DNA from: an uncultured bacterium
GTDB lineage: Bacteria > Oederibacteriota > JAAXVQ01 > JAUVAV01
Length of the DNA stretch: 64,000 bases
Assembly: GCA_963710755.1 (NCBI GenBank)
Contig: CAVQBK010000013.1
Coordinates: 369,872 to 433,871 of the forward strand
Direction: 5' to 3'
A program made the translations under genes and the position numbers. Shown here piece after piece: positions 1-18,884 of the stretch. Position 1 is the stretch's first letter, and the number at the start of each line of letters is the position of its first letter. The notes beneath the pieces are model-generated. The model worked only from the letters and a program-made list of their open reading frames with translations. It searched no databases and was not told the DNA's origin.

Positions 1-3000
1 ACGGCATAAGGCTGAACCTGGTTCAGCTCCACTGACCCCAGTCCATGATACTTGCCGTCATCACCATAAGCTGGTGAGGTACCCCAAGCCTGATAGCCAT
101 GGGCTTTGGCATAGGCTTGAAACACGCCGCCCATTTCCTCCAGCATTTGCAAAGCCTTGCCGTCGCGGATGAATATATTGGGCAAGCTGTAGAAAAAGGC
201 CGCCATATTTTCCGTGCCGCCGCCGCCATAACGGGGGATGGTGAAGCCCATGATGGTTTCCTGCGGCACATGGGCATACCTGACCTGATTGTAAGCAGAA
301 GGCTGCAGGGCACCGGCCATAATGGCCGCCAGATAAGCCGAGCTGTTGTCCGTAGGGCCTTCCAGGATCCAGCTTCTGTTCCAGGGATCGAGGTGACCTT
401 TTCTGATGGCCTGCCAATCGTCAGTAGTCAGGCCTTCTTTAGTGCCGCCCAGCAGGCGCCCATTTTCAGTGACCACTTTATCCCATTGGTACCGTCCGGC
501 AATGGTAGCGGCCAGTTCGGTGACCTCTTGGTTGATACCCGCATGCTTGAGCCATTGCAGCGCCAAGGCCAGATTGCCTTCATCAATAATGCTGTTCTTG
601 ATTTTAACTTTACCGTTTGCTTGTTCCGCCGATGGAATGCCTTGCCTATCCCTCACATTCAGCCAAGCCCAGGTAAAGGGGAACCCGTAAAGATTATATT
701 TCTGCTGATAGCCATCGAGCATCTTCAAGGCCTTCATCAATTGGGCCAGCGATTCTTTACTTTTATTATGCTGATAATCCAAAGCCAGCACCATGAGGCC
801 AATGCCGATGTTGCTGGTGCTGGTGTGGCCTGCCAGCGCGCCATTGCGGTTGTTACGATTATCTACCGGCCAGCCGGTGTTGGGATCGATGAGAGACTTG
901 AAATCCCTGATCGCCTTGGCTTGCAATTGTTGGACAACCTTTTTTCCCTGAGCAGTTAATCTTTGGTAGGTATACGTTTGGGTCGTGGAAGTCCCTTTGG
1001 CAAAACTTTGATTGACCCCTCCGGTCCAGGGGCTGACCGTCAAGCTGAGGCTGAGGAGCAATACTCCAAAAAGTCCGAGCATGCGATGCCACCAGTGCTT
1101 TTTCGACTGGTCTTTACCCGGTGACAGCGCTGTGCCATTAGCCAAGGGAAGTTGATTTAAAATGGCGTTCCCCTCTTCCAAACGTTTAATGGTCAGCGAT
1201 TGGGGTAAGCCCAATTGGTCGCTGAGCTTGTCTATTTGTTTGAGCATGGCCAGATAACGATATCCTCCGATTTCGCCCTGCATGGTATGGCCACCCACCC
1301 AAAAAACAGTTTGTCCTGTTAAATAATGAAGCAGCATCATCCATTGCACATCGCGAGAGGCAATAGCATCCAAAATCTTCTTTATCCGGCGTTGGGTGTA
1401 CCGATCCTTGAAGTCCAATGGCTTTTCAGTATTTTTGGGATCCTTATTCTCCAGGATATTTTCCAAGTCATTAAGTGAGAGTTGATGGAGTTCTATTCCT
1501 AACCGCTTCTTTAAAAGATCATCCAAATGCAATTCCCTGGCCATGGCCATGATGCCCTCCACGGTGCCCGTGAAAGAAGCGCTTTGGCCTGGAAACGCTT
1601 GTTTGGACGTGGCTAGTCTATGGAGCCCTGAGCTGTTGAGGGTAAAGCCGCCGCTGTGGGCAAGGCTTGCTTGGAATTGGCCTTGTCGAAACAAACCGGC
1701 CCTCAAACGTTCCCCAAAGTTCACCACCATGCCCGACACCTCCTCTTTTTTGGAGGTGGCAACAGATTCAACTTCAGGTGTTGGGGGGCGGTTGGTCCAA
1801 CCAGACGTTACTGCCACCGGCCGGCCTTTTCCATTGTCACGCCGGAGTGCTTGTGCATGAGTTTTAAAATCAGCAGTGATCATGCGCGCCAGCAGCTTTT
1901 CCTGACGGCGGGTTTGTTTTGGTCCCAGTCCCAAAATGTCCACATTCAGGTTCCGTGTCCCATAGCCCATGGCCACGGAACGGGCAAAGAAAGGAATCAG
2001 ATAATAGGAATACAGCGCTTTTTGGAGGTCCCGGTCCGCTACCACGTCAGGATGAGGCAATTCCGCCTCCGCTGATTTGCCCTCAGCTGTGGTGAGCCGC
2101 ACGGTCATGCTTTTACCTGTAGCTTGTACTACCTCCCGTACCGCCTGGGCAGCATCAGCAAAAAAGACGTCATTGTCTTTGCCTTGGCTGAAAATGGACA
2201 AGGCCTGCCCAATGGTTTTCCCAAAAATCGGCGACAGATTATTAAGGTCGGCACCCCTGGCATAAGCATGCCATATGGCTTGCTGATCCATCGCCTGCCA
2301 CTCACCCTTTTCATTGGCGTATTCCATTTCAACGCTATAGGCCCCCGGACGGGAAGGTTTCCAGCTTATCTCCCAGACCGACAAGTCCTGAGGCAACCCA
2401 TGCGCAAGCGAAGCCTCCGTGGCCTTGATTGGTTTGGCCTTCAAGATGCCGGCGACTTGCTGACCCTGTTCCTCTTTAACCACATAGCGAACACCTTTAC
2501 AGTCTTTGGGAAGAAAAACAGCGAGATGAAATTTTTGCCCTATTTGGGCCATCTGGCGCTGTCCCTGGTCCAAAGGCGGATCAAAGGCTGGTAAAAATAA
2601 TCGGTGTTGCAACAGTTGCGCCAGACGCTTTTCCTGGTCACTTAAATCTTCGAGTTTTTCACCTCTGGCAATAGCCAAAGCACTCTTCTCTGCCACACCT
2701 TCAGCCGCAGCCCATAAGTCCAGAATGTCCTTGGTATACGTCTGAATATCCCCGCGTCCTGTTTGCTTTAACAAGCCCTGGATAAAGGTCAACTTTTGAA
2801 GTAATTCAATTTCTTCTCGTGTCCTGCTATTTTCACCTCCCAGGAGCGCATTGAGCCGTTCCACGGTGATATGGTGAGGCAGACGAATGTCAAATTTTCC
2901 GGCATGGGCATTGGGGTCATTGATACGGAATTGAGGCGGCAGGTTAAAAAGTCGGAAGCTGAAAGCAAAGCCAAGCCCGCCCGGCTGCTCAGCAGACGCC

Positions 3001-3053
3001 AGAGGTAAGCCCCATGCACCTGTTCCGCTACTTCCGGACTATCCAGATCATGG
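1..3053 (-). CDS. 3' portion of a giant multidomain gene, read in a different frame from ORF 2789..13159. It holds the C-terminal end of the GH77 domain, about 580 aa of unassigned sequence, an internal hydrophobic segment and a six-hairpin glycosidase-like (DUF3131/GH144-like) domain. It runs off the window start with no stop.
   Basis: Hand translation of the reverse strand (codon high coordinate = 2 mod 3) is open from 3053 to 1 and protein-like throughout. Segments read: '...FRINDPNAHAGKFDIRLPHHITVERLNALLGG...' (GH77 C-terminal R-x-N-x-P-x9-R-L motif); '...DVQWMMLLHYLTGQTVFWVGGHTMQGEIGGYRYLAMLKQ...'; 'MLGLFGVLLLSLSLTVSPWTGG' (about 1082..1020); and '...LIDPNTGWPVDNRNNRNGALAGHTSTSNIGIGLMVLALDYQ...YNLYGFPFTWAWLNVRD...'. 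It is missing from the ORF track because it has no in-window stop and no ATG near its 5' end. Confidence 0.6.
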
Positions 3054-6000
3054 AGCTCCCCGTCCAGTCCTTCGAAACCATCGGTCTTGAAATCATCGAT
3101 AACCTTTTGCTTGCTTTCCCCGTTCATGGCAGCCCACATGGCGCTGAAGGTCACTGAATCATGGAGTGCGCCCGTAGCCAGCATACGGCTGGGCATGTGG
3201 TCAGGATAATAAGGATTTAGGCGGTCACCCCAGGGCTCGCCCGTAAGCGCGAAGATATAAGGCGCAAAGCCATAAGCCCCGCTGGTCTCCATTTCCGTTT
3301 GTGCTTGGTGGGGCACCACACCCAGGGTTTCATAAACCAGCGTCACACCGAGGGCCTTGGCATAGCGTTCCAGCTCAGCCAATAAGGTCGCCGAGTGGGG
3401 TGTGGGCTTAAAATAACCAAATTGTAACCGGTCCGATTCCTTGGGATCCATGTCAAAAAAATAAGTTTTCCAAAATCCTTGTGCTGATTGTTCATGCCCT
3501 TTTTTCCCTTTGATAGCATCAGCCGGAGTGGTTCGCAGGTAATCCTGCACCCGGGCATCATGTTTGATTTTCTGCTCCACGCTTTGGTATTCCCGGCGCC
3601 AGGGTGAATCTTCAGGTAAGGCTTTGTCGTAATCCTGGCGCGGTACGGTTCGGGCAATGTAAATGGCATTATCAGGACCGATGCGGCCATGTTCATTCAT
3701 CAGCCAGTGCAAGGCATCAGCCGGTAATTGATTTTCCAAGTTGGCTGGCAATTGACGGCGCCACTGTTTTAATTTGTCCATATAGAGCGCTTGGGCTTTG
3801 TCGGCCGCGGCCTGGCGCAAGCGCTCCTGCTCTTCGTTGTCCGCTGCAGCCGATATGGCTGCCATGGCTTCTTGGCGTATGGCCATCATCTCCTTAAAAA
3901 TCCCCAGGTCTTTCCAGGTCACATCACCTTCCGTGAAATAATAGCTGCGGAACAAGGCGAGTGCATGATCAATACGAATATACCGGCCGTATTTAGCCAT
4001 GGCCTTGATCTGGGCTTTGAGGGCGTCCATGGACTCGGATAAATACATCTGCCAGTATTGGGCATTGGGGTAAGCTTCTTCCGCAGGCACGCCGCGGCTG
4101 ACGAGACGCAGAAAACCGAGCTTCTTTTTCAGCCCATACCAGGCCGGATGTTTCCAGGGATCGGCTTCACTGGGAGCAATACCCTTGTCCACCGCCAATT
4201 CAATGCCTTTGCTGCGGGCATAAGTTTTCAACTCATCATATTGCGCATCCGCGATAAATTGAACAAAGGCCTGAAAAAGAATCTGATCAGCCAGTCTTTT
4301 TTTGGCGTGACGCAAAGATGCCGGTTCCCTGGCCCATAAGCCTTCCTCGCCTGCTTCACATATATCACCTTTCCAGCGCTGCCAGGCCCAGTCGCGCAAG
4401 TCATCCAGTTCATATACTGTTTTCCCTTCCTGCTCCGCTTTTTCCTTAAGCTCATGGCGGCGCTGATTGTATAGGGCCTGAAAATCCGAATTTTCTTGAC
4501 GGCGTTTTTCAGCCAGGACCAGTTGTCTTTCCCTGGTGGCAGGCATGGCCTTCCTATTATTCTTAGACCATGTTTGGAGGACCTCCAGTTGAAGAGTCTC
4601 ACCATCCAGATATTGACCATCTTTTTCCCAGCGGGCCACTTCCTTGGCCATAAATTCTTGTTTGAGCAAATGGTAAAGAAGATCGTCTTCTTTATTCTTC
4701 TTTTCCTTTTTCCAATAAGTCTCAAAGGCTTGGCGCAGGTGCTGATTTTTTTCATTGTCCGGGTAAGCGGCCAAGGCTTGCCAGACCGATTGCAGCACCT
4801 CCAAGGTCAAGGCCCGTTTCTGATCATATTGGGCCCGTTCAGCCTGACGCCACTTTTTGACGGCATCATAATTAAAAACTAATTTCCCTACTGCTCGCGG
4901 AGCATAGACGTGATTAAATACCCAGGGCAGATTGATAAATTTGGGATCCTTCATTTCCTCGCTTTCATAGGCATAGGGCGAGTTGCCGATAGGCGGCCAA
5001 AATAAACTTTCCATCATCATGGCTTTAAAGCCCATTAGTTTATGAAAATCCACCACCTTTTTCATGAGGATCAAATCCATGATCCCCATGTCCTCTTGTG
5101 AGCGCCAATGGAAGAGATAATCAATAGTGGCCACCACATTACGTAAGCCGGCCCGCGCCGGGGAAATAAATTTTTGGTAGGGGAAGAGTTTTCGATACAA
5201 CGCATGGTGGGTGATGGCGCCGGCCAGATAAACCGCGCTACCAGTCAGGCTGGTGGCAAGGATATGGTGCGGGGCCAACATCAGCACGGTTAGGCCGACC
5301 ACAGCGGACAGCCCAAGGCTTACGGTAATTTTAATGAAATTTAAACGGATTTGTTCTGTTTGATCCGAAGAGGCTGGAACTTCTTTATGCTCTGTTTCAT
5401 CCCAAATGGTGGTATGCAGGAATGCAAACAAGGGCTTGATGGCCAAATCATACACCCCGTAAGCCAATGCCAGCGATGCCGCCAACGCCGCCAGGAACCA
5501 GCCCGTCCCCACGCCGAGTACCACCGCTATAATAGCCGGCGCCATGGTTGCTCCCAGCAGGGTAAAGAGCATCATATTCTCAATCTGCTCAGCTATGTCC
5601 AGCTCCACTTTATCCGACAAACGCCCAAAGGTAAATTTGTGCACCCAGGCTTTGATTTTGGGACTGGTCAGGCGGGGCGATTCTTTTTCCGGCTCAACAG
5701 CACCTGAGCTGAAAGCAGCCGCCAAGTCAGGATCTTGGCGCAAGGCCAACAAAACCTGTTCCGGTTCCAAGCGGGCATTAATCATTTCCAATATGAGTTG
5801 CCGCTGGATTTCATTAAAACGTTCATTGTGGGTTTCTTCGCCATGACCTTCGCGCAAATGGGCATTTTCATGCACCAACGTTTCCATAATATCGTACAGC
5901 TTGGCATAATCTTCCTGCGTGGTTGATTGGTGGTTCATAAACCGGTTCATCCAAGCGAGCCAATCGCCAATGCTATTTTGGTTAAAATTAATCCAGTCAG

Positions 6001-9000
6001 GACCATAGAAGGCTATGCGTTTCGTGGAAACCGTCATGAACCCTACTTTATAAGGACCATAGCCATGGGTCTGCATCAAAGGCTGCATAAGATCCTGACA
6101 AAGTTTGGCCAAAGCATGATGCGCTGCGGTGAGCTCGCTTTCACGCAGAGGCGTGGGCCGGTCATCCTCAATCGTCACTTGTCCAAATCCTTGGTGTTGT
6201 GGCTTTTGTGCTTCTTTCAGCAACAGGGCAAAGGGTTCACTTAATTCTTTCAGGTCCACTGGGCTGTCACGGCGGTCGGCCTCAACCGCCATACAATGGA
6301 GATCGTAGAGGGAAAGTTTTTTACCCTCACCAGGTTGTTGGACTTTTATTCTGGTGAGCAGTGTGGTGAGTTGATCCGAATTCTGAATAAACTGAACTTC
6401 CCGGTCAGTCAAATCTTCCCACCGTCCCTGATTAAGCTTACCGGCCAGAGTCTCAGTAGAAATGTAATGACGGACCAAATGATCATATTTGTACACCAAA
6501 TCCAATGGCCGGTCATAATTCAACGTTGCTGCCGCGGTCTCCAGCACCGCGGCCAGGATTGCTTTTTGCAGTCGTGGCAAATATTTTTCCGTCTCCGCCA
6601 GCCCGCCCCGTTCCCGGTCGGTTACAATGGAATAAACATGTTGTTTGAGGCTGACCGGCAGGCTGAGGCTCAATCCTTGTGTTTTGAGCATGTCTTTTAG
6701 CGCTGCCGGCACCAAGGCCCACAATTCAGGGTATTGATTCAAGTCCATGACAAAATAGCCGGCCTGCAACACGCCTGTTTTCCCGGAAGCCCGTTTAACC
6801 ACTTTGATCTTTTCCTGGTCCTGCCAGTCCACCTCAGCCAAGAGGGCCGCCTGTTCCGAAATATTACGGCCGTTGAAAGTAATGGTCAGCCTTCTTTTTT
6901 CATCAACCGACCCCAAGGTGCCCGCGTAGAGTTGCAAACTGTCGCCAATAATAGCTGTTTCCAAATCAATGCCGTCTTGATTCTGTTCATAATCCCCGGG
7001 GTACTCCTTGATCCAAGTATCGACGCGGGTACCTTCAAACTGGCCTTCAAACTCTGCGAAGCGCTCAACCTCCCAGGTAAAACCGCCTTGGCCATTGGGT
7101 ATTTTTCGGACCTCCAAAATTTGAAAGCGGCCACTGCCTGATTTTCCGGAGATCACACGAACCCGGTCCGCGACCGTAAGATTTTTGTACCATCCCCGGC
7201 CGTAATATCCTTTGGAGGGATCAGCGCCTTCTTTCGCACCGGTCCTATCCAAGGGAAGCAGGAAGTTCAACATATCTTCCGTATCCATGCCAATGCCATA
7301 ATCGCGGGTGCTTAGCACCAGTTGGGTTTTGCCTTTGGTTTGAACCGGCACGGCTGTGACTTCGATGCGTTGGGCTCCGCCCTTTTCCAAGCTGGCTTTA
7401 TCCGCATTTTGAATGTTCTCTCTTATCCATTCATAACCTTTTCCCATGCCGCCGCGCGCGATGTCTTCTTCCGTTTGAGCGTAAGCCTCATTGCCTTTAA
7501 GCGTTTGCTTTAAAGCCGCCACACTTTGAAAGATCCCCAAATTGCGGCGCACCCCGGCCAGCACTGAAAGTCTAATTTTTTTAATAACGTCCAAGCTACG
7601 GCCCCGCGGCAGGTTCAATTGGCGTGGGCTCAAATCTTCCATATCAACATCGCCGCGCAAATAGCGGATCAAAAAGGCGCCTTCAGCAATTTCATCCGGC
7701 CCGGTCTCTGGGGACAACCATTCCCAATGAGATTGCAAGCCTGTAATCATTTCAAAGCCTCTGTCCTCTCCTGCCTCCCCTGCAGCTATTACATGCAACC
7801 AACGATCCAAAACTTGATTAAAATACAGGTTATCGCTTACCACTTGCCCCAACCCATCAAGCAACTGGCCCACGGCCCTATGATGCTGCCGGAATAACCT
7901 ACCGCAGATTTTGCTCAATGTTTCCTGGTTTTGTGGATTAAGACGTTTGATCTCTTGGCCGTCGGCAAAGGGCAGGAGCCAATCCAGTTTTTCCATATCC
8001 GCCGCACTCCAATTGTAGTGGAGCAGATTATTTATAAACCGCGATTTCGCCTCCGGTGACAAGTGGTTATAAAATTCGTCACTCGGCTCAATAAAAGGAC
8101 CGTCGGCAATATTCTTAAACCAATCCAACGGTTGAATGGTGATGGTTTGGTTCTGCTTAAATATCACCAAGTCCGATTTGAGAAGATCAATAAACTCTCC
8201 CTCCAGTCCCGTAAAAATGGCGGTTGATCCCTCCAAACGGAACAACCTTTTTACCCCCCACTCCCCGATAATGGCATAATTGACGCCGCCAATGGAAAAA
8301 GGATTCCATGCATCGGGGATATTGCTCATGTTCTCAACGTGGGTAAAATACCCATCACTTAAATGAAACAAACTCCAATGCCGTCTATGCTTGAGCCACA
8401 TATAGATTTCACTGCCCACCTGCACGGGGTTGGTGGCTTTCTCCATCTCGCCCAATTCCTTAACCGGCTCAAACCGGTCATGAATTAACCGGTATAGCCT
8501 TGTTTCCCCATTTGTTAATGCGCCTAAAATATAAATTTCTTGGCCCACGGCCACAGGTTTATCGTGATATGTAAAAGCAACCTCCGCCAGTTCTTGCACT
8601 TGAACAAAACGCCCCTGAACCAGCCGATATAACCGGGCATCATTTGCTGGGCCGGCAATCTCATAGGTTTCCCCGCCCACTTCCACCGGCGTCCCATACC
8701 CATCCTTATCTTTCAATTCCACAATTTCCACAAACCGTCCGTCAGTTAATCGATAAAAATGCTGCGAATCATCACTTAAACTGGTTAAGTTTACATAAAT
8801 TTGCCCTCCGGCACTTACAGGGATACCAATCTCACGTGCATCCGCCAATCCTTGGGTTAATTCGAACCGTCCATTAGCCAGCCTGAATAAGTAACTGTGA
8901 TGGTCTGAAGAGCCAATGAAAAAAACTTCTTCCCCAATTTGAATAGGGCCCTCTTTAAGGTTTAATCTTCTTAATTCTTGTACCACTTCAAATCTACCGT

Positions 9001-12000
9001 GAGATCGTCTATAAATGATGTCTTCAGCACCTTGCCTAACCGCTACATAAGTTTTTCCGCCTGCCTGACCAATCGGGTATATTATCTGCGCTGGTTTGAG
9101 ATCAGGGACCACTTCGAAGCGACGGCCTGACCATTGATATAAGCTCATGCTGCCCGGCTCGCCGGCGCCTACCAAGATATCTTCGCCCACTTTTTCAGGC
9201 ATTTGGATAACATCCAAGCCGTGAAATTCAGTCAGTTCCGAAAATGCGGAACCAGTCCAGCGATAGAGATCATAAACAATGCCGCGCTGCATCCGTAAAA
9301 ACAAATCACCATCAATTTCCGCCACGTCGTAGCTTTCACCGGCCAATTCGGTTTTGAAAGCATCGGCTATGGAAAAACCATGCACTGCGCAAAAGTCATC
9401 TATCTTCGACAAACGTTCCGCGGCCTTTGGAGCCAGTCCGGTCCGGCCCGACCGGAAATAATTGAACTGCAACAATTGCCGAATATTAACCGGATAATCA
9501 TCAAACTTAAACGTCATGCCCGCCGGTGATGCATCGGCTACGCCCCGGGGGACTGAGCCTCCGGCATGCAGAGTAGCTTCCGTTCCTGGTTTGGTGCCAT
9601 AGCCGGTCCAAACCCCGAAGAGTAAATTCAAGAGCAGCGGGCCTTGCCCCGCTAAGGCTTTATCAACATAGGCATAATAAATAGCCTGGTTTAAAAGCAA
9701 CAGCTTGCCTACCCGGGCAAAGGGGCGTGTCAAGTTGGCGATCCATACCGATTTGCCGCTGGACAACACAGGCTGGGCATCGATGCCTCTTGGATCGAAT
9801 GGGAGCAGTCCCTCCTCAACCGTGAGGGGCTTTTTACCTGCATAGGCCTCGGGTGCGATGGCTTGCTGCTCCATGGCGGGTAAAAAAACATAGTCCATTT
9901 CTTTCAATCGGCTGGCAGCCTGATAAAATCTTTGCCGCAGGTGACGCGCGATATTAAGTTCTTCACCCTTGGTCTTGGTCCGCTGTGATTGCTGTAAGCG
10001 TTCGGCGGCCAGATAAACAGCATTGACCACGGGCATCATGCTTTCCGGATTATTGGAAAAATTTCGGAGCAGATTGTCGGCTACGGTCTGAAAAGCTCTG
10101 GCTGTCACCTCGTCCAGCAGGATTTGCTGGCGTCCCTCCCTTTGATCGCAGGCCGTGGGAAGATCAATCACCACTTCTTGAGCCAAGGCGGCACCTTCTA
10201 TTTCCAAGGTCTCTACTTCCGTGCCACCGACCAGTAAATAAACTTTGCTGGTCTTACCCACGTGCCTGGACCAGTAGTATTCTTCCCCATTGGCGGTCCA
10301 ATCCTCCTGGAGTAATGCCGACTTCAATTGATCACCAGTTCGGTTGGTGGAAACTTCAGGCACCGGTAAGGCTTCCATGAGAGTTGACAATCCTCGGCCC
10401 TCATCAAAAGGGGCCACCCCCTTTCCTGAGTCACGCACATGTAATTCCCGTCCATCCTCGCTCAGCCAATAGCGCACGGCTTTCTCGCCCAACCGATAGG
10501 TTACCGGTTGGCCTGCCTGGTCAAAGGGTGACAAATCATTAACCAGGACTTGGCCGCTTTTCCCCTGGAAGATGAGACCGCGCCGCGAGGTACCCAGCTT
10601 TTTTCTGATGTAGTTTTCCAGACGCTTGCCATCCAAGGGCTGCTGGCGGTGCAGCACCACCTCGGTGCCCGGGCCCTGGGTGGCTAACAGGGATTCGTGA
10701 TAAAAATTAACCCGGATGGTACCTCTTGTTTTTACGAATACTGCTTTGTAGCGCGTACGTCGTTCCTTATCAGGTATAGTGATAAACTCCAGGCGGTCGC
10801 CTTCGTTCTGCAAGAGCCCGATGGCTTGATAGACACCGCGGCCAAAGCGGCCAATAGCGTCACCCATGGCGTCAAAGCCATTGTTGATCAATTCCACCAA
10901 AGCTTGATCAGCCGTGGTGGATTGGCGTTTCATGAGCGTATCCAAGCGTTCCGGCTCAAGAGGAAATCCTTCGGCCATGCATTCCCGGGCAAGGTCTACA
11001 AAAACAGGCCCAATGCCTTCCTTGGGCTGCGAAGTCTCAAGGGCTTTGATAAACCGTTCCCGATAGGCTCGCTGTTTTTCTGCTGGCAAATCACGCAAAT
11101 GCTTGATGAGACTGACATATAGAGCAAGATCATAGCCGTCTTTGGTGTAGAATTGTGATGGGGATTGCTTCTCGGAAAGTTTAGCTTTGGGCCGTCGCGG
11201 TAAAACCCATTTAACTAAAATTATCAGTGCCAATAAGATCGCCGCGGTCCAAGTTGCCTGGCTGGTCAGACCGCCTGCCAAAGGTGATTCCCAAAGCGGG
11301 ATGTGAGGTAAAAAACCCGTGGTTCCGGCCATCAGCAATGAAGCCGGTGACAACGCCGGCAGAGGCCCTTGTAATTTTATTTTCATGGTTACCCAGGCTT
11401 GCTGCAAAACCCTGCTTAGGGATTCCAGAAATGCACTCGGTGCATGCAAGTTGATTTTTTCATAAGCCGATTGATCGGCAAACACCGCCGCATAATGCTG
11501 ACCGGGCAGCGCTTTCAAAACGACTTCAGCACCGGGCTCAAGTCCATACGCTTGCAGCGGCCGGTTGGCCACCACGACTATTTTTTCTGCTTCACCAACC
11601 TTGGCTAGAAAAGCACGGACGCCTTTAACCGGCGCCTTTAATTCCTGCCATTGCGTAATGTCAAAGCTCAGTGCCTGTTGAGCGCTGACTTTCATGGCCT
11701 CTGCACTGGCCGTGGAAAAAAGCAAGGTTCCCCAAGCCATGCGTTTAAGTTTATTGACGGCCAGGGCTTGCAATTGATCGGCCACAGCCAGAATGGTCTG
11801 GTTTTTAGCCAGCAATTGTTCCAGCGGGGTACGTCGATTCTGCAACAACTCAAAATAAGGATTAACCACGTCCAGACGGGAAACCTGGGGGCGCACCAAC
11901 AAATAAGTAATATTTCGTTTTCGCAATTCCTCACTTACTTGCTCAGTATGAAACCCGCCATTAATCATCACGGCCAGCGATTGCTGCTGCGTCTGCATGG

Positions 12001-13159
12001 CGCTGAGTAGATTATCCACAAATTGCACGCTGCGCTCGTCCGCCAGGTGATAAAATTTCCAAACCTCATCCAGAGCTTGGTCAAGTGACAGAAGGTTTAA
12101 TTCCAAGGGCAGCGGTGACATATTTTTTGGGCTCGTAGCATTAATAAAGTCAAGAAAAGACTGGGTGCGATAGTCGCCGCGATGGCCACGGAAATCAGCC
12201 AGTTCCTGCTGGGTGGCGGAAATATTGAGAAGCTTTTCCATGTTATCGAGGCGGCGGAGGTGCTCATCGAGCTGCTTCTCAAGGTCCGTCGTGTAAAGCC
12301 TGATGCGCAAGGCTTGATCAAGATGATCCAATTCCTGATAGAGTTTTTCCGGATTGGTCTGTGGTCCAAAATAGGTTTGATTCCATTTCAGAAACTGTCG
12401 CACTTGGGGATAGTTGTTGAGGTCCAACCGTTGGCGCCTGGCCTGCCCGTCAAGCTTGGCCGCATAGCCCAGAATATCCAGGTGGCCGTCCCGGTATTTT
12501 TCGCGAATCTGATCCAAGCGTTTAAGTTCCGGTGAATAGAGGGAAGCTTTCAAAGTGCCCAAAGCTTCCCGAAGGTCATAAATCAGACCTTGGGTTTCAC
12601 TATTTAAAAATTGGCGAACCGTCTTTAAGCTTTCCTCATATAAGGCCTGGCTTTCAATGCCTTCCAACTTGACGGGAGCCTGACTGGTTACGGCCACATA
12701 ATCAGCACCACTTAGCCGGCCTTCCTTAACCAAATAATCGCTCACCACATTTCTAATTCTTTTCAAAGGAAAGTTGCGGAGCAAACTAGGATTGACAGGT
12801 CCGCTGGCGCCTTCGATGGCCACCAAATGCAACCCTTGGGTTTTGATCAGGTGTTTCAAGGTGGCGGCAATATTCTTTTGCACTTCATAATTGCAGTGCA
12901 GATCCTGGATGCAAATAACGGTTTTATTCCCGCCTTGAAAGGCGCTCTCAATATGAGCCCATTTCTCCGGCACTGTAACCGCCCGGCCCAGGTGATGAAT
13001 CATCAGCGGCTGTTGGCCGGCGGTGTAGAGCCCTGGCTCAAAGGCCCAACTCATGATAGGAAATAAAAAACTGATGGTTATAATTAAGGTACAGGTTTTA
13101 ATGGCCAACTGTCGGCCACCCTGGCGCCAAGCTAAGATGGACCATAGGAAATTTTTCAT
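2789..13159 (-). CDS. Giant multidomain protein of 3456 aa in this frame. In order it has an N-terminal signal/TM, a TM near residue 640, about nine internal ~43-aa repeats (residues ~1290-1660), a GHKL/Bergerat ATPase domain (residues ~1905-2020, motif IRENIQNADKA...DYGIGMDTEDM), an HExxH site (HENAH, residues 2429-2433), a TM cluster (residues 2528-2660) and a C-terminal GH77 4-alpha-glucanotransferase domain (YGRYIRIDHAL, LVYETLGVV, GALHDSVT).
   Basis: Long ORF with an AGGAG RBS 8 nt upstream of the ATG at 13159. Motifs recognised by eye: GHKL motif I (E-x-x-x-N-A-D-x-A) and a G-rich G1/G2 region; amylomaltase signature RIDH (nucleophile Asp), AEDLG-like YETLG (acid/base) and THD-like LHDS. 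The last ~90 codons of this frame (after ...HGAYLW) look non-native, while the GH77 domain continues in the other frame; see the frameshift finding. Confidence 0.8.
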   Translation of the reverse strand: MKNFLWSILAWRQGGRQLAIKTCTLIITISFLFPIMSWAFEPGLYTAGQQPLMIHHLGRAVTVPEKWAHIESAFQGGNKTVICIQDLHCNYEVQKNIAATLKHLIKTQGLHLVAIEGASGPVNPSLLRNFPLKRIRNVVSDYLVKEGRLSGADYVAVTSQAPVKLEGIESQALYEESLKTVRQFLNSETQGLIYDLREALGTLKASLYSPELKRLDQIREKYRDGHLDILGYAAKLDGQARRQRLDLNNYPQVRQFLKWNQTYFGPQTNPEKLYQELDHLDQALRIRLYTTDLEKQLDEHLRRLDNMEKLLNISATQQELADFRGHRGDYRTQSFLDFINATSPKNMSPLPLELNLLSLDQALDEVWKFYHLADERSVQFVDNLLSAMQTQQQSLAVMINGGFHTEQVSEELRKRNITYLLVRPQVSRLDVVNPYFELLQNRRTPLEQLLAKNQTILAVADQLQALAVNKLKRMAWGTLLFSTASAEAMKVSAQQALSFDITQWQELKAPVKGVRAFLAKVGEAEKIVVVANRPLQAYGLEPGAEVVLKALPGQHYAAVFADQSAYEKINLHAPSAFLESLSRVLQQAWVTMKIKLQGPLPALSPASLLMAGTTGFLPHIPLWESPLAGGLTSQATWTAAILLALIILVKWVLPRRPKAKLSEKQSPSQFYTKDGYDLALYVSLIKHLRDLPAEKQRAYRERFIKALETSQPKEGIGPVFVDLARECMAEGFPLEPERLDTLMKRQSTTADQALVELINNGFDAMGDAIGRFGRGVYQAIGLLQNEGDRLEFITIPDKERRTRYKAVFVKTRGTIRVNFYHESLLATQGPGTEVVLHRQQPLDGKRLENYIRKKLGTSRRGLIFQGKSGQVLVNDLSPFDQAGQPVTYRLGEKAVRYWLSEDGRELHVRDSGKGVAPFDEGRGLSTLMEALPVPEVSTNRTGDQLKSALLQEDWTANGEEYYWSRHVGKTSKVYLLVGGTEVETLEIEGAALAQEVVIDLPTACDQREGRQQILLDEVTARAFQTVADNLLRNFSNNPESMMPVVNAVYLAAERLQQSQRTKTKGEELNIARHLRQRFYQAASRLKEMDYVFLPAMEQQAIAPEAYAGKKPLTVEEGLLPFDPRGIDAQPVLSSGKSVWIANLTRPFARVGKLLLLNQAIYYAYVDKALAGQGPLLLNLLFGVWTGYGTKPGTEATLHAGGSVPRGVADASPAGMTFKFDDYPVNIRQLLQFNYFRSGRTGLAPKAAERLSKIDDFCAVHGFSIADAFKTELAGESYDVAEIDGDLFLRMQRGIVYDLYRWTGSAFSELTEFHGLDVIQMPEKVGEDILVGAGEPGSMSLYQWSGRRFEVVPDLKPAQIIYPIGQAGGKTYVAVRQGAEDIIYRRSHGRFEVVQELRRLNLKEGPIQIGEEVFFIGSSDHHSYLFRLANGRFELTQGLADAREIGIPVSAGGQIYVNLTSLSDDSQHFYRLTDGRFVEIVELKDKDGYGTPVEVGGETYEIAGPANDARLYRLVQGRFVQVQELAEVAFTYHDKPVAVGQEIYILGALTNGETRLYRLIHDRFEPVKELGEMEKATNPVQVGSEIYMWLKHRRHWSLFHLSDGYFTHVENMSNIPDAWNPFSIGGVNYAIIGEWGVKRLFRLEGSTAIFTGLEGEFIDLLKSDLVIFKQNQTITIQPLDWFKNIADGPFIEPSDEFYNHLSPEAKSRFINNLLHYNWSAADMEKLDWLLPFADGQEIKRLNPQNQETLSKICGRLFRQHHRAVGQLLDGLGQVVSDNLYFNQVLDRWLHVIAAGEAGEDRGFEMITGLQSHWEWLSPETGPDEIAEGAFLIRYLRGDVDMEDLSPRQLNLPRGRSLDVIKKIRLSVLAGVRRNLGIFQSVAALKQTLKGNEAYAQTEEDIARGGMGKGYEWIRENIQNADKASLEKGGAQRIEVTAVPVQTKGKTQLVLSTRDYGIGMDTEDMLNFLLPLDRTGAKEGADPSKGYYGRGWYKNLTVADRVRVISGKSGSGRFQILEVRKIPNGQGGFTWEVERFAEFEGQFEGTRVDTWIKEYPGDYEQNQDGIDLETAIIGDSLQLYAGTLGSVDEKRRLTITFNGRNISEQAALLAEVDWQDQEKIKVVKRASGKTGVLQAGYFVMDLNQYPELWALVPAALKDMLKTQGLSLSLPVSLKQHVYSIVTDRERGGLAETEKYLPRLQKAILAAVLETAAATLNYDRPLDLVYKYDHLVRHYISTETLAGKLNQGRWEDLTDREVQFIQNSDQLTTLLTRIKVQQPGEGKKLSLYDLHCMAVEADRRDSPVDLKELSEPFALLLKEAQKPQHQGFGQVTIEDDRPTPLRESELTAAHHALAKLCQDLMQPLMQTHGYGPYKVGFMTVSTKRIAFYGPDWINFNQNSIGDWLAWMNRFMNHQSTTQEDYAKLYDIMETLVHENAHLREGHGEETHNERFNEIQRQLILEMINARLEPEQVLLALRQDPDLAAAFSSGAVEPEKESPRLTSPKIKAWVHKFTFGRLSDKVELDIAEQIENMMLFTLLGATMAPAIIAVVLGVGTGWFLAALAASLALAYGVYDLAIKPLFAFLHTTIWDETEHKEVPASSDQTEQIRLNFIKITVSLGLSAVVGLTVLMLAPHHILATSLTGSAVYLAGAITHHALYRKLFPYQKFISPARAGLRNVVATIDYLFHWRSQEDMGIMDLILMKKVVDFHKLMGFKAMMMESLFWPPIGNSPYAYESEEMKDPKFINLPWVFNHVYAPRAVGKLVFNYDAVKKWRQAERAQYDQKRALTLEVLQSVWQALAAYPDNEKNQHLRQAFETYWKKEKKNKEDDLLYHLLKQEFMAKEVARWEKDGQYLDGETLQLEVLQTWSKNNRKAMPATRERQLVLAEKRRQENSDFQALYNQRRHELKEKAEQEGKTVYELDDLRDWAWQRWKGDICEAGEEGLWAREPASLRHAKKRLADQILFQAFVQFIADAQYDELKTYARSKGIELAVDKGIAPSEADPWKHPAWYGLKKKLGFLRLVSRGVPAEEAYPNAQYWQMYLSESMDALKAQIKAMAKYGRYIRIDHALALFRSYYFTEGDVTWKDLGIFKEMMAIRQEAMAAISAAADNEEQERLRQAAADKAQALYMDKLKQWRRQLPANLENQLPADALHWLMNEHGRIGPDNAIYIARTVPRQDYDKALPEDSPWRREYQSVEQKIKHDARVQDYLRTTPADAIKGKKGHEQSAQGFWKTYFFDMDPKESDRLQFGYFKPTPHSATLLAELERYAKALGVTLVYETLGVVPHQAQTEMETSGAYGFAPYIFALTGEPWGDRLNPYYPDHMPSRMLATGALHDSVTFSAMWAAMNGESKQKVIDDFKTDGFEGLDGELHDLDSPEVAEQVHGAYLWRLLSSRAGLALLSASDFLTCRLNSVSMTPMPMPENLTFVCLTISPWNGSMRSWEVKIAGHEKKLNYFKS

Positions 13160-13589
13160 GAAAGAGTCTCCTGATTAGGGTTAGTGGAAAATCCGGGTCA
13201 TATATATGATTATATTAAGTATAGATTTTGGGGCGAAGGCCTGCAATAGAGGGTTCGATTTTATTTGATTTTAATAAATATTATGCTTGCGATGTTTCGA
13301 GTTGAAACAGAAGAAGGGTAATATTCAACTGTGCTTTTTGTAGGGGCCAAAGGTCTAAACCCCTACAACTAAAGAAGACCACAAAAAACAAACCATTTTA
13401 TATCCTTAACTTTCGGTCCTTTGCAGCTGCTTGGGCCCGATACGGGTATGTGTAGGAAAAAGGATTTAAAACAGGTTTAACCCCAAGACACCAAGGCACA
13501 AAGGGAAACAACATAAACCGAAGCTATTCCATGAAGTTAACCTTAGTCTCTCCCCTCCGGCACAGAAAGCTAAACGCTAAACACCGATA

Positions 13590-13994
13590 TTATTTTTTAA
13601 TAGGCTTTAACACCAATCTTCCATAGGCAATAAACGCGCTTAGGGCAGCTACGACCAACCAATAAATCATAGGACCCACCTGGGCCGCGTAACCGGATAA
13701 AAGATGCAACCCGCAATAGAACAGCATTTCGGCGGCAATGAAGGAGGCTGCAATGGGAGCCAGAATAGCCAGACGCTTATTAAAGGCTGGAAGAATCAGG
13801 CCCAGACTGCAAAGCAGCTCAACAACACCCATGGCCAGCCAAAGGCCATGGGGAATGGCTTGCAAGGAAGGTACAGTTTGCGCGGGATTGGAAAACTTCC
13901 ACGCTGCGCCCATAAGGGTATGCAGGGCGAGAAGGATTTGAAGAATCCATAGCAGAATGTTCATGATGTGCCTCCTGGAAAGTGTTGATGCCAC
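13590..13994 (-). CDS. DoxX-family small membrane protein (four predicted TM helices). The start may be the internal Met at 13964.
   Basis: Hydrophobic 134-aa ORF with a DoxX-like pattern (…ILLALHTLMGAAWKF…LWLAMGVVELLCSLGLILP…). Confidence 0.6.
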   Translation of the reverse strand: MASTLSRRHIMNILLWILQILLALHTLMGAAWKFSNPAQTVPSLQAIPHGLWLAMGVVELLCSLGLILPAFNKRLAILAPIAASFIAAEMLFYCGLHLLSGYAAQVGPMIYWLVVAALSAFIAYGRLVLKPIKK

Positions 13995-14128
13995 GTACGG
14001 GTTTTCTCAAAAACCTCGTGATCCCGTTTAGAATCATAATGAGATGACAACCAAGATAGTCACCTTCTTGGCAAACACAACCCTATGTACTTTTTTTTAC
14101 ATGTTTTCATCAGGCGTTAGCAAACTAT

Positions 14129-15061
14129 TCAAAACCAGGCGGACAAGGAAAATAGATTCTTCAGGGAAAGGTTGTCCTGCCCCCAAAATTCAGGACTGAA
14201 GGTAAAATCAAGGGCCATATTGATCCGGAATAATTTGAATTTCAAGCCCAGGCCGGCAGCACCATAAGCAGCCATGGTTTCCGTGGCCAGCTTCATGCCC
14301 AGACGGAGTACGATTTTCTTATCCATGGTCAGTTCAGTGCCTAAATGCACTGATCCGATCTGGTCGGGCGTCAGATAACGGGTCTCCAAAGCTGCTTGCC
14401 AATCCATCTTGTCTTGCTGGTAAAGCAATATATGCACCCCTGCAGCCAAGGTCAAGGGCAGCGGATCAGCGGCTTGGTTCCATTCAATCGGCGGACCGAT
14501 ATTTAAAATAGCCAAAGCCAGGCGCCAATGGTCGTCCAGCTGGTACTGCGCCCCCAAGTCAAAGGCCAAATCAGAGGCATTAACCGGCCCCAGCGTAAAT
14601 AAAAGACTTTTACCTTGAACACCAATGGACAATTGTGGAGTCACCGGGATGCCCACCGCCAAACCCATCACGATATCATTAATATTCACGGGAGCATCGC
14701 TGGCCCCTTCATTATTAATAGCCGGGGCGCTGCGGTAAAGCAACTGTAGCCCGACCGTACCCAACTCCGGCACGGGCACCGCCGCCACCAAAATTTCCGT
14801 AGCCATGGATTCAATGCCCGCCACATGGGTGGCAATAATCTCATTATGCTCTTGCCAGGATAAGCCGGCTGGGTTGGCCATCAGCACATCAGCGCTCTTC
14901 TGCCAGGCGATGCCAGTACCGCCCAAGGCCGTAAAACGGCTGCTTAAATCCTGGAGCAAAATGCCCGCACCACTGGTGCCGGTCTGAGCCATCACGGGCA
15001 GGCAGCTTCCCAGGAGGCCCAAGCCCAGAATGATTAGGAAATTAATTTTTCGATTGTTCAC
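14129..15061 (-). CDS. Outer-membrane beta-barrel protein of the FadL/TodX/PorV-like family.
   Basis: Signal peptide (MNNRKINFLIILGLGLLGSCLPVMAQ); N-terminal 'FTALGGTGIAWQKSADVLMANPAGLS' (NPAGL motif of FadL-like OMPs); alternating amphipathic strands; C-terminal aromatic ...SAWF. Confidence 0.6.
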   Translation of the reverse strand: MNNRKINFLIILGLGLLGSCLPVMAQTGTSGAGILLQDLSSRFTALGGTGIAWQKSADVLMANPAGLSWQEHNEIIATHVAGIESMATEILVAAVPVPELGTVGLQLLYRSAPAINNEGASDAPVNINDIVMGLAVGIPVTPQLSIGVQGKSLLFTLGPVNASDLAFDLGAQYQLDDHWRLALAILNIGPPIEWNQAADPLPLTLAAGVHILLYQQDKMDWQAALETRYLTPDQIGSVHLGTELTMDKKIVLRLGMKLATETMAAYGAAGLGLKFKLFRINMALDFTFSPEFWGQDNLSLKNLFSLSAWF

Positions 15062-15279
15062 TATGTCACCTCAGGAAGACCTGTTGATACGAGTTGTATT
15101 TTACCAAATAACAGCAATTTTTCATCAATTGTTTTCACACGACGTTAACGGCCGATAGGGATTGGACTGGAAAATTTTCATTACTAATGGACACCTATGG
15201 GAAGATCAGCTTTTTGCTAATAAATAGCCCGTTTTTTTTAAAAAAATGGTTGCCTTTCAAATCTTAATGACTATAATAA

Positions 15280-16269
<990 letters not shown>

Positions 16270-16588
16270 GGCAAGGTTCCGATTGCCACAGCGTAAGTAA
16301 TCCCACCGGGCGCAGGTGCACAAGATCTTTTCTGCGCCCGGTGGTGACTTGAAAGGTAAAAAAATAGATTGGCCCCGCCCTGGCCGCGGTCATATTGCAG
16401 CCGCGGGGTAATGAGATAACAAGACAGCAATTTTTCATTTCCAACGTTTTCCCAACGTCCAAATCGACTTACCCCCGCAAAGTCGGCCGGGCTTGGTGCC
16501 GTTCCCGGTGCAGGCTTGGCAATAACGATTGCCGTCTCTTTTGGCTGGTCTCGATTTTTCAATTTTAATAAAACACAGGTGAACACTC

Positions 16589-18766: not shown

Positions 18767-18884
18767 GGGGTTGACATGTTGAACCCCTATTTGAATATAC
18801 ATTATACAAAAAGGACGCCGTCGGCAGCTTTGGCGAGTTGAATTATTGCTGACGCAGATTTTTTAAAAAGGACGTGAAGCCATC

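Follow-up and report, generated by a model that had tools for sequence, protein, structure and literature searches.

A giant membrane-protein gene with a probable single-base frameshift, carrying GHKL, GH77 and SGL-clan-like domains behind a TIKI/TraB-like N-terminal domain

The window (the whole stretch of DNA analysed, 64,000 nucleotides) opens inside a very long gene encoded on the minus strand. As assembled, its open reading frame (2789..13159, minus strand) comprises 3,456 codons and stops at 2789, and the identical 3,456-aa product is present in NCBI/ENA as P0001, on a 530,999-bp contig. An AT-rich intergenic region of ~430 nt lies upstream of the start. All peptide strings quoted in an earlier note on this DNA were found on the minus strand, whereas the length claimed there for the polypeptide (at least 4,480 aa) exceeds the maximum that the window can hold (13159/3 = 4,386 aa). 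The features are listed below, with residues numbered on the polypeptide read through the frameshift.

1..13159, minus strand: the whole gene within the window, coding for 4,386 aa once the frameshift is bridged, with its 3' end beyond window position 1
13157..13172, minus strand: start codon ATG (13159-13157) and a good Shine-Dalgarno sequence, AGGAG (13172-13168), spacer 8 nt, read from the sequence
13040..13108, minus strand: TM1 or signal anchor, aa 18-40 (Kyte-Doolittle 1.96; flanking K/R residues, two N-terminal and none C-terminal)
11810..13009, minus strand: TIKI/TraB/ChaN/erythromycin-esterase-like domain with a large helical insert, predicted periplasmic, aa ~51-450 (BLAST, phmmer, alignment, AlphaFold2)
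11201..11269, minus strand: TM2, aa 631-653 (Kyte-Doolittle 2.16; no K/R before, five after)
9350..11200, minus strand: region without family match, predicted cytoplasmic, aa 654-1270 (Pfam and PDB searches)
8198..9349, minus strand: array of nine protein repeats in tandem, 42-44 aa each, aa 1271-1654 (autocorrelation; units in register)
6980..7447, minus strand: GHKL (Bergerat-fold) ATPase domain of the Hsp90/sacsin type, aa ~1905-2060 (PDB, NCBIfam, P0113)
5765..6010, minus strand: HExxH module, aa 2384-2465, with HENAH at 5858-5872 (alignment to P0113)
5195..5572, minus strand: two hairpins made up of four hydrophobic helices, aa 2530-2655 (the last of the four weaker, Kyte-Doolittle 1.04)
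2811..5092, minus strand: GH77 4-alpha-glucanotransferase domain with long insertions, complete after repair, aa ~2690-3450 (Pfam, PDB, NCBIfam)
2946..2950, minus strand: T5 homopolymer with a 1-nt frame change, inside the GH77 motif D-F-L-N-L (gapless alignments across the junction)
2789..2791, minus strand: stop codon of the as-assembled open reading frame, reached after 51 out-of-frame codons
1083..2810, minus strand: region without family match, ~576 aa, aa 3451-4026 (HMMER, Pfam)
1026..1082, minus strand: TM7, aa 4027-4045 (Kyte-Doolittle 1.75; four K/R before, one after)
3..944, minus strand: C-terminal domain, cut by the window edge, predicted periplasmic (P0122 homology; Cgs profile match)

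The stop at 2789 exists only because of the 1-nt frame change at 2946-2950. Past the shift, no stop interrupts the -1 frame between ~2999 and window position 1, a run of some 985 codons for which the chance in random sequence was estimated at around e^-46. The repaired join (…SASDFL/NLPPQFRINDPN…) aligns gap-free with the canonical GH77 C-terminal motif and is matched in PDB 1tz7 (…QMQDLLNLGNEARMNYPG…) and in the GH77 domains of two other giants, P0057 and P0059. Furthermore, the Pfam GH77 match crosses the junction and extends to profile position 460 of 465, and downstream of the frameshift lies a module shared with P0121, a protein with the same N-terminal domain. The earlier note's single polypeptide is supported by homology that continues across the junction. 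Probably, a single-base frameshift interrupts what is otherwise one very long gene for a membrane protein, the apparent two-gene annotation being due to one base at a homopolymer. As to its cause, we infer that the frameshift is most likely a homopolymer-length assembly error or a very recent mutation. A fusion of two unrelated genomic pieces at the homopolymer during assembly is scarcely credible: giant genes are difficult to assemble and the window starts inside the gene, but the join falls within one conserved GH77 motif, with both halves in the right order and register, and base composition is uniform across the junction.

A less probable reading is that the frameshift is real. The gene would then encode a 3,456-aa protein with a GH77 domain lacking its last ~45 residues and a 51-aa out-of-frame tail, a recently broken (pseudo)gene and not a 4.4-kaa chimera, and the downstream stretch of at least 985 codons would either be a remnant that has only just lost its gene or have a translation start of its own inside it. 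The deposited assembly has T5, and it and the NCBI/ENA annotation show just the 3,456-aa product, the only one carried by public databases; the downstream-frame protein found no match in a collection of 5.8 billion proteins, although this could simply reflect a partial open reading frame at a contig end. No further broken genes were seen in the remaining 50 kb of the window, where the neighbours give full-length domain matches, so that the assembly is not error-ridden and a real frameshift is quite possible on this count. The giant genes of these lineages are, moreover, poorly conserved and turn over rapidly (PMC10066038; 10.64898/2026.06.07.730766). On the other side, the break lies within a conserved catalytic-domain motif that continues without gaps in the other frame, it coincides with a homopolymer, the commonest place for length miscalls, and the ~985 codons beyond it are still stop-free, so that any inactivation would have to be very recent. 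Taken together, a genuinely broken gene was judged a serious but rather unlikely reading.

Programmed -1 ribosomal frameshifting at C-UUU-UUA, giving rise to both the 3,456-aa product and one of >4,386 aa, was considered very improbable. A -1 slip after UUA does yield D-F-L-N-L, which was taken as a match to the GH77 consensus D-L-L-N-L, but the heptamer, with only five U and a C before them, is not a canonical X-XXY-YYZ, and the 100 nt of RNA following the T5 run has no unusual structure, folding no better than shuffled sequences (z-score 0.22; equalled or surpassed by 112 of 200 shuffles). In P0057 and P0059, GH77 is encoded in a single frame, and a short product with a truncated catalytic domain has no evident use. 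The description below follows the single gene read through the frameshift.

The first ~1,270 aa were absent from the earlier description, the other by-eye domain calls of which were mostly right, and they include the one widely conserved domain of the protein. This N-terminal region was recovered in 119 of 119 listed homologs (BLAST and phmmer), and the family, which by that list has no fewer than 119 polytopic members, 2.4-7.7 kaa long, counts 235 proteins at E 0.001 or better. Among the listed homologs, only aa ~20-460 are common, at 22-51% identity, and the matching region stands at the N-terminus in all that are full-length; an N-terminal hydrophobic segment is present in 93 of 120 family members. 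Phylum-level labels among the homologs are mostly Omnitrophota/Omnitrophica, the closest being labelled just 'bacterium'. Behind the common domain, the listed homologs carry kinases, PPDK, PGM, NTP-transferases, GT1/GT5 and methyltransferases, as well as GH77 (P0057 and P0059) and PF10091/DUF3131 (P0077).

Five positions of the N-terminal domain, D86-x-H88, E116, R376 and H404, are invariant in a 27-sequence alignment (A1). The catalytic residues of RRSP are E3900-x-H3902, E3930, R4001 and H4030, and the superfamily to which it belongs is characterised by a 2His/2Glu catalytic motif with a conserved basic residue (PMC6254334). Judged from sequence, the same set appears to be present here, with Asp in place of the first Glu and spacings of 28 + 28 aa as against 28 + 29 aa in RRSP. 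The AlphaFold2 model (pLDDT mostly >90 over model residues 11-400) predicts the TIKI alpha+beta fold with a parallel beta-sheet core. Searches of this protein against PF01963, PF04187 and PF05139 gave no Pfam match, NCBIfam gave none, and the A1 profile gave none in PDB; the distant homolog P0076 alone has a precomputed PF04187 match. PrgY, TraB and Tiki are membrane-tethered proteins with an extracytoplasmic catalytic domain. The TIKI/TraB-like domain is probably periplasmic, and is the sole widely conserved part of the protein.

The region that follows TM2 (aa 654-1270) matched nothing in Pfam or PDB and bears no similarity to the GHKL region. The nine-unit repeat array, noticed earlier at ~43 aa per unit, was recovered as nine units of ~42 aa with the consensus …PVxVGxEIYxxG…LYRLxxGRFxxVxEL, and a BLOSUM autocorrelation gave a sharp peak at period 42 (-0.006 versus a background of ~-1.1); no DNA-level tandem repeat was found beneath it. 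The sole Pfam match, to EPTP, was weak (E 0.0027, 18.2 bits versus a 21-bit cut-off), and the size and pattern of the repeats suggest beta-propeller blades. The array precedes the GHKL motifs, the reverse of the order claimed before. Apart from its length, this order, the missing N-terminal stretch and the truncation of the C-terminal domain, the earlier observation was largely confirmed.

For the sacsin/Hsp90-like GHKL domain, motifs I (ExxxNxxD), II (DxGxG) and III (GxxGxG) are present in order as RENIQNADKA, DYGIGM and GYYGRGWY (aa 1912-1995), and the latter two stretches align with motifs II and III of Hsp82. A PDB search with an E limit of 10 returned 124 distinct Hsp90/TRAP1 N-domain sequences, the best at 1e-4, NCBIfam gave weak HSP90 and HtpG matches (E 0.003-0.007), and P0113 has a homologous GHKL module that carries PF13589. 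The assignment nevertheless stays below the curated Pfam cut-offs, both for HATPase_c (PF02518; E 0.014, 16.3 versus 26.4 bits) and for HATPase_c_3 (PF13589; 14.1 versus 25 bits). The HExxH site pointed out earlier is present at aa 2430, within a module conserved with P0113 through the motif HExAHLxExxGxxTHxExF (single-target E 4e-08); in Pfam, this module gave only a weak WLM match (E 0.014).

The GH77 domain was matched by Pfam PF02446 (E 6.8e-37; 127.9 bits versus a 25-bit cut-off), by amylomaltases in PDB (E 5.6e-9) and by the NCBIfam 4-alpha-glucanotransferase family (E 7.5e-24; 84 bits versus an equivalog cut-off of 556). Enzymes of GH77 and clan GH-H share an Asp nucleophile (RIDH), a Glu acid/base (E-D-L-G region) and an Asp transition-state stabiliser (H-D). 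By motif-level evidence, the candidate catalytic residues here are D3064 (YIRIDH), E3277 (YETLG) and D3334 (LHDS), and P0057 and P0059 show the same conserved columns at these motifs of their GH77 domains. The domain had been called catalytically intact-looking, which holds for its family and its Asp/Glu/Asp motifs; as assembled, however, it is not uninterrupted, the frame change cutting off its last ~45 residues, and it is intact only once repaired.

The stretch after GH77 (aa 3451-4026), put at about 580 aa without assignment in the earlier note, is indeed a region of ~576 aa in which Pfam finds nothing. An exhaustive HMMER search gave only 11 matches in 1.84 billion representatives; a sub-module at aa ~3629-3796 is shared with P0121, which has an N-terminal TIKI-like domain (E 8e-168) and methyltransferase domains, and another at aa ~3837-4004 with six uncharacterised proteins. 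The C-terminal domain (aa 4073-4386) is 32% identical to P0122 (E 4e-16), its one detectable sequence relative in 1.84 billion representatives. P0122 itself matches PF10091 (35.8 bits versus a 27-bit cut-off) and runs ~120 aa past the window end in the alignment. A two-sequence profile of the window domain and P0122 matched Cgs 8rf9 (E 0.001), with TSxSNIG aligned to TSPTNIG, and the structure model of the domain is of low confidence (pLDDT 47.7). The suggestion of a six-hairpin domain like DUF3131/GH144 is supported by this transitive homology through P0122, but the window fragment, which lacks the C-terminal ~120 aa, has no direct Pfam match to PF10091 or PF11329 even at E up to 10.

A Kyte-Doolittle scan revealed seven hydrophobic helices in the window protein. 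The expected block of four to five transmembrane helices corresponds to the four-helix stretch at aa 2530-2655, and the hydrophobic segment formerly taken for an internal signal peptide is better read as the seventh helix, given its flanking charges. With topology drawn from this simple hydropathy scan and the positive-inside rule, the gene would encode a polytopic inner-membrane giant of at least 4,386 aa whose C-terminus lies beyond the window. The TIKI-like domain would be held in the periplasm between two helices, followed by ~1,900 aa in the cytoplasm that comprise the region without family match, the nine blade-like repeats, the GHKL ATPase and the HExxH module. Two helical hairpins would then lead to a cytoplasmic GH77 domain and the ~576 aa without family match, and the final helix would place an SGL-clan (alpha/alpha)6 glycosidase/transglycosylase-like domain in the periplasm. 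By the same rule, GH77 is predicted to be cytoplasmic and not on the surface, a placement that depends on the weak sixth helix (Kyte-Doolittle 1.04); were this helix not real, GH77 and the C-terminal domain would swap sides.

An initial hypothesis had been that the protein is a dedicated surface machine for glucan remodelling or synthesis, with GHKL ATPase, GH77 and six-hairpin domain working jointly on a single polymer. Two glycan-active domains do occur in one membrane protein, and sugar-metabolism cargo is common in the family. However, no glycosyltransferase domain was found with Pfam or NCBIfam, which leaves glucan synthesis without basis; GH77 acts on alpha-1,4-glucans and the SGL clan on beta-1,2-glucans, different polymers, and the predicted topology sets the two domains on opposite sides of the membrane. 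Furthermore, the family joins unrelated enzymes to the same N-terminal domain, so that co-occurrence is not proof of a shared pathway, and a survey of relatives for the same fusion found none that keeps the GH77 and SGL pairing. The glucan machine was accordingly regarded as improbable.

More probably, with the odds somewhat in its favour, the locus holds one frameshifted giant gene with a common chassis and variable cargo, a reading that draws on the observed gene structure, domains, family and homology continuity and on the predicted topology and activities. The protein would belong to a family defined by its N-terminal TIKI/TraB-like hydrolase domain, the rest being a variable string of ordinary enzymes and scaffolds. 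GH77 would carry out membrane-tethered maltodextrin or glycogen chain transfer and the C-terminal module would act on envelope substrates of the beta-1,2-glucan type, as cargo on a common chassis and not as steps of one pathway. More tentatively, and on the whole doubtfully, the periplasmic TIKI/TraB-type domain may be the invariant chassis of an uncharacterised family that swaps cytosolic enzymes, serving as a maturation or processing protease or esterase that governs the fate of the giant or envelope substrates. If true, a single chain would expose an alpha-glucan transferase to the cytoplasm and a beta-1,2-glucan enzyme to the periplasm, which would offer a testable handle on the role of Omnitrophota-type giants. 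The N-terminal regions of multi-enzyme giants were previously described as without identifiable domains; what more than 100 such proteins have in common is a TIKI/TraB-like hydrolase fold in which the catalytic constellation is conserved. Predicted to lie on the periplasmic side, it is a defined target to mutate or express, more tractable than the whole giant.

Compared with known systems, the N-terminal domain shares the acid-x-His … Glu … Arg … His constellation, at the same spacing, with RRSP of the TIKI/TraB/PrgY/ChaN/erythromycin-esterase superfamily, which also includes HopBA1, EreC and Bcr135/136. It differs from that superfamily in having no Pfam or PDB match at the sequence level, in its first acid (Asp, not Glu), in a ~250-aa helical insert that splits the domain, and in its fusion to a multi-kaa polytopic protein. 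The catalytic domain and three catalytic motifs of amylomaltase/MalQ (Aquifex 1tz7, Thermus 1cwy) are also found here, but GH77 measures ~760 aa because of long charged insertions, as against ~500 aa in MalQ, and is embedded in a membrane giant whereas MalQ is soluble. P0057 (3,981 aa) and P0059 (7,244 aa; named '4-alpha-glucanotransferase' by NCBI, from a Verrucomicrobiae MAG) have the same N-terminal domain, and their GH77 domain likewise contains insertions and shares the YIR(I/L)DH, E(T/V)LG and (H/Q)DS motifs. Their GH77 identity to this protein is nevertheless only 25-33%, the partner domains differ (GT5 starch-synthase and receiver domains in P0057, PF00291 in P0059), and neither resembles its GHKL/HExxH region or its C-terminal SGL-like domain. 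The SGL clan of beta-1,2-glucan enzymes comprises GH144, GH162 and the GH189 Cgs cyclization domain, and is defined by residues E239, F286 and Y367 of XcSGL (PMC12102758). The likeness to this clan and to PF10091 ('Glycoamylase') consists of the Cgs profile match with TSxxNIG and the PF10091 match of P0122, in a domain that here is truncated by the window and follows a TM helix at the end of a giant protein.

The combination as a whole, which the earlier note did not recognise, is not a one-off but belongs to a large family of polytopic giants with arbitrary enzyme cargo behind a common N-terminal domain. The earlier interpretation stands in part, the domain calls being mostly right and the one-off machine, glucan synthesis and signal peptide unsupported. 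Giants of this multi-enzyme type are known from Omnitrophota (bioRxiv 10.64898/2026.06.07.730766; 10.1101/2023.11.21.568195), including membrane-anchored ones with a sugar-metabolism Pfam module and a HATPase_c-containing module (bioRxiv 10.64898/2026.06.07.730766). As in the 'multi-enzyme metabolic cluster' class (Nielsen & Lui 2026) and the Archaeovorin type (West-Roberts et al. 2023), unrelated enzyme domains tile a long polytopic chain here; those giants likewise have a TM helix roughly every few hundred residues, recurrent HATPase_c and sugar-metabolism cargo, and largely unique sequences. At 4.4+ kaa in the window, the protein lies under the 10-kaa and 30-kaa survey thresholds (at least 10 kaa in the Nielsen & Lui catalogue, a gene >90 kb in the West-Roberts set). 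A SecA-DEAD-like domain occurs in most giants according to West-Roberts et al. (10.1101/2023.11.21.568195), whereas the 4,386 aa of the window gave no Pfam match to a SecA-DEAD-like domain and contained no recognisable C39 or S8 domain, and neither GH77 nor the TIKI-like N-terminal domain is mentioned in Nielsen & Lui 2026 or West-Roberts et al. 2023. No ortholog with the same architecture was found in protein-collection and genome-representative searches. Several unrelated enzyme domains and TM helices are nonetheless present in one polypeptide, and a chimeric architecture, taken alone, is the hallmark of this class; the unusual mixture of domains is real, yet characteristic of a protein class described only recently. 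The protein is a new, unique GH77, SGL-clan-like and GHKL member of the multi-enzyme giant membrane proteins, a class catalogued in Omnitrophota and related uncultured bacteria.

The ATG of the giant gene was preceded by AGGAG at a spacing of 8 nt. Upstream of it (13160-13589) lies an intergenic region that is AT-rich and, at about 430 nt, unusually long; a simple scan found no sigma-70-like promoter in it. The reading frame is described by two features:

13159-2789, minus strand: as-assembled ORF of 3,456 aa, as read from the sequence
2946-2950, minus strand: T5 run at which the frame changes, …SASDFL running on in the -1 frame as NLPPQFRINDPNAHAGKFDIRL…

As an identical 3,456-aa product (P0001) is present in NCBI/ENA, on a 530,999-bp contig, the stop at 2789 belongs to the deposited assembly. 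The final 51 codons ahead of this stop were out of frame, and past the T5 run the -1 frame met no stop for about 985 codons, as far as window position 1, where it runs off the window. The repaired join aligned without gaps over the canonical GH77 C-terminal motif of PDB 1tz7 (QMQDLLNLGNEARMNYPG) and over that of the GH77 domains in two further giants (NDILGLDDSYRVNIPG and NDLLGLDEFFQLNRPG), and the Pfam GH77 match crossed the junction, reaching profile position 460 of 465. Because this homology is gapless across the junction, both pieces were assigned to one gene and not to two ordinary genes, in agreement with the earlier note, which had read a single gene through the frameshift. The length of at least 4,480 aa given there exceeds the capacity of the window (13,159/3), however, and the read-through product within it is 4,386 aa.

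One added base (T5 to T6) puts the frame right, which is the hallmark of a miscalled homopolymer length, and in its intact state the gene probably, though by no means certainly, encodes a single polypeptide. That the break is real and very recent was considered less likely; in favour of a real break, the rest of the window carries intact genes (class II FBP aldolase, a three-gene [FeFe]-hydrogenase cluster, dTDP-sugar epimerase, LD-carboxypeptidase, and histidine kinase) whose domains matched over their full length, showing that errors are not widespread in the assembly, and no other broken genes, as a sign of homopolymer-prone assembly, were found in the rest of the window. An ORF overlap at 22478-23624 was considered as a broken gene and rejected, as it represents two separate Gate-domain genes. 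Programmed -1 frameshifting would likewise yield D-F-L-N-L, but C-UUU-UUA departs from the canonical slippery heptamers, and shuffled sequences fold at least as well as the 100 nt downstream of it (z-score 0.22); with a poor slippery site and no downstream structure, such a mechanism is very unlikely.

Searches for exact matches to the 3,456-aa product returned nothing that would extend the gene beyond window position 1, and scans of genome contigs and metagenome contigs returned no relative. The sole other contig found of the source organism, L001 (Logan contig ERR11523667_594019, 6,612 bp), comes from a public run assembled independently from short reads and corresponds to window 13797-20408, with the same gene order (310-aa ORF, aldolase, and 725-aa ORF) and an identical aldolase product; it breaks at window 13797, just upstream of the giant gene. 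A literature search found no publication on run accession ERR11523667. The 933 aa downstream of the frameshift had no match, not even to themselves, among 5.8 billion proteins, an exhaustive HMMER scan of 1.84 billion representatives with all 933 aa as the query gave 11 matches only, and a profile of the downstream sequence and P0122, a relative of the C-terminal domain, recovered P0122 alone. The open frame at window 1-2999 (minus strand), at least 985 codons long, is without counterpart in the 5.8-billion collection, whereas the upstream 3,456-aa product is present; possibly, the window start lies at or near a contig end and partial products were discarded.

Read as a single polypeptide encoded on the minus strand, the protein comprises, in order:

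aa 18-40: first membrane helix (TM1), from hydropathy and flanking charge
aa ~51-450: TIKI/TraB-like domain, from structure comparison and invariant residues
aa 631-653: second membrane helix (TM2), followed by a strongly basic stretch
aa 654-1270: stretch without Pfam or PDB assignment
aa 1271-1654: repeat array, nine units of 42-44 aa
aa ~1905-2060: GHKL domain with all three Bergerat motifs
aa 2384-2465: HExxH module, from homology to P0113
aa 2530-2655: four hydrophobic helices, from hydropathy
aa ~2690-3450: complete GH77 domain of ~760 aa with long charged insertions (Pfam E 6.8e-37)
aa 3451-4026: stretch without family assignment
aa 4027-4045: membrane helix TM7, with four K/R before and one after
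aa 4073-4386: C-terminal (alpha/alpha)6-type domain, from its relative P0122

The N-terminal region matched 235 database proteins at E 0.001 or better. For 119 of the 119 non-self proteins among the 120 matches listed, similarity was confined to aa ~20-460 (22-51% identity); these proteins are 2,423-7,673 aa in length, with the matching part at or near their own N-termini, and in most close relatives, too, the domain is followed by a hydrophobic segment. As Pfam, NCBIfam, and PDB sequence searches left the domain unrecognised, its TIKI/TraB-like identity rests on structure comparison. An AlphaFold2 model built from a 27-sequence alignment had pLDDT values mostly above 90 over model residues 11-400, with a helical insert of ~250 aa splitting the fold. 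The alignment contained the invariant columns D86-x-H88, E116, R376, and H404, which reproduce the 2His/2Glu-plus-Arg constellation of the superfamily, and their spacing matches that of E3900-x-H3902, E3930, R4001, and H4030 in RRSP, a member used for comparison (PMC6254334). The TIKI/TraB-like identity of this family-defining domain is the most interesting by-product of the analysis.

In the predicted cytoplasmic middle, a degenerate first GHKL domain at aa ~750-920 (ALVELINNGFDAM…GRFGRG…VRDSGKG) was considered but found unsupported, as this stretch had no PDB or Pfam match and was not similar to the GHKL region. Autocorrelation of the repeat array peaked sharply at period 42; its units are blade-sized, with a weak EPTP match below threshold, and no DNA-level tandem repeat was found beneath them. 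The GHKL domain matched 124 Hsp90/TRAP1 sequences in the PDB at E up to 10 (best E 1e-4), together with a weak NCBIfam Hsp90/HtpG match and a sub-threshold Pfam match. Residues 1924-2465 were homologous to aa 2204-2759 of P0113, a family member of 2,920 aa carrying PF13589, in which GHKL and HExxH occur together in the same order with the motif HExAHLxExxGxxTHxExFxxIxRxLIL kept. This recurrence suggests a joint module, with GHKL and zincin-like domains as its two putative parts. The motifs YIRIDH, YETLG, and LHDS of GH77 were conserved with the giants P0057 and P0059. The sacsin/Hsp90-like GHKL fold, nine-unit array of ~43 aa, HExxH site, block of four to five membrane helices, and intact GH77 domain (complete after frame repair) of the earlier note were all recovered, whereas its internal signal peptide is better read as the membrane helix TM7. 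Between GH77 and TM7, a sub-module of ~165 aa (aa ~3629-3796) was common to P0121 (2,384 aa; its aa 632-796), which also has the N-terminal domain of the window protein (E 8e-168), plus a methyltransferase; this is further evidence that the sequence after the frameshift belongs with the giants. A further module (aa ~3837-4004) was common to six proteins without Pfam assignment. The C-terminal domain has one clear relative, P0122 (E 4e-16), which carries PF10091 ('Glycoamylase') above threshold and extends ~120 aa beyond the window end. The proposed six-hairpin domain is supported by homology through P0122, but on its own the fragment in the window falls short of PF10091.

Seven predicted helices and the positive-inside rule would place the TIKI-like and C-terminal SGL-like domains in the periplasm, and both GH77 and the GHKL ATPase in the cytoplasm, where ATP and maltodextrin/glycogen occur. 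The sixth helix is weak; were it not real, GH77 and the C-terminal domain would exchange sides. With moderate confidence, the protein is proposed to be a membrane-anchored chassis with independent enzyme cargo. The chassis would consist of a periplasmic TIKI-like hydrolase and the membrane helices. On the cytoplasmic side, GH77 would transfer alpha-1,4-glucan chains; in the envelope, the SGL-like domain would act on substrates of the beta-1,2-glucan type; and the GHKL/HExxH module and repeat array would be cytoplasmic. The glucan synthesis or remodelling machine previously suggested is without support, as the protein has no glycosyltransferase, the polymers targeted by the two glycan domains differ, the domains themselves probably lie on opposite sides of the membrane, and no relative conserving the pairing of GH77 with an SGL-like domain was found in protein searches.

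Elsewhere in the window, genes for a NuoF-like flavoprotein (725 aa), a HydA-like large subunit (585 aa), and a NuoE-like 2Fe-2S subunit (165 aa) at 16589-21136 (plus strand) appear to encode an electron-bifurcating [FeFe]-hydrogenase, adjoined by a class II FBP aldolase gene (15340-16269); judged by gene content, this would be consistent with an anaerobic fermenter. A 1,526-aa ORF at 59414-64000 (minus strand), starting at the window edge with LAHEHGHNILENRG, had no Pfam match and matched internal regions of giants (P0047 aa 4486-5126, E 1e-36; P0015, P0042, and P0009). Apparently, a second giant gene runs off the right end, with this ORF as its C-terminal part, and the genome would therefore hold several giants. 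GC over this region is 0.41-0.45, against ~0.51 elsewhere.

Among the matches listed, family cargo comprised protein kinases, PPDK/PEP-utilising domains, phosphoglucomutases, nucleotidyl-transferases, GT1 and GT5 starch-synthase domains, methyltransferases, aldose epimerase, and branching-enzyme-like domains, with GH77 in P0057 and P0059 and PF10091/DUF3131 in the giant P0077; phylum labels were mostly Omnitrophota/Omnitrophica. The earlier observation was real, with corrections, and its domain calls were largely right; the combination it had not recognised is unique as an architecture but typical of a described class of giants. Seymour et al. (PMC10066038) emphasise how obscure the functions still are, and GH77 and a TIKI/TraB-like domain go unmentioned in both preprints on giant proteins (10.64898/2026.06.07.730766; 10.1101/2023.11.21.568195). 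In the former preprint, 94% of Omnitrophota long proteins have TM helices or signal peptides, sequences of the giants are overwhelmingly unique, a 'multi-enzyme metabolic cluster' class is described, and Pfam co-occurrence modules centre on sugar metabolism (starch synthase, GT1, PGM, and receiver domains) and on HATPase_c, methyltransferase, and GNAT domains (10.64898/2026.06.07.730766). The cargo mix of the window protein's TIKI-family relatives matches this published picture of Omnitrophota giants.
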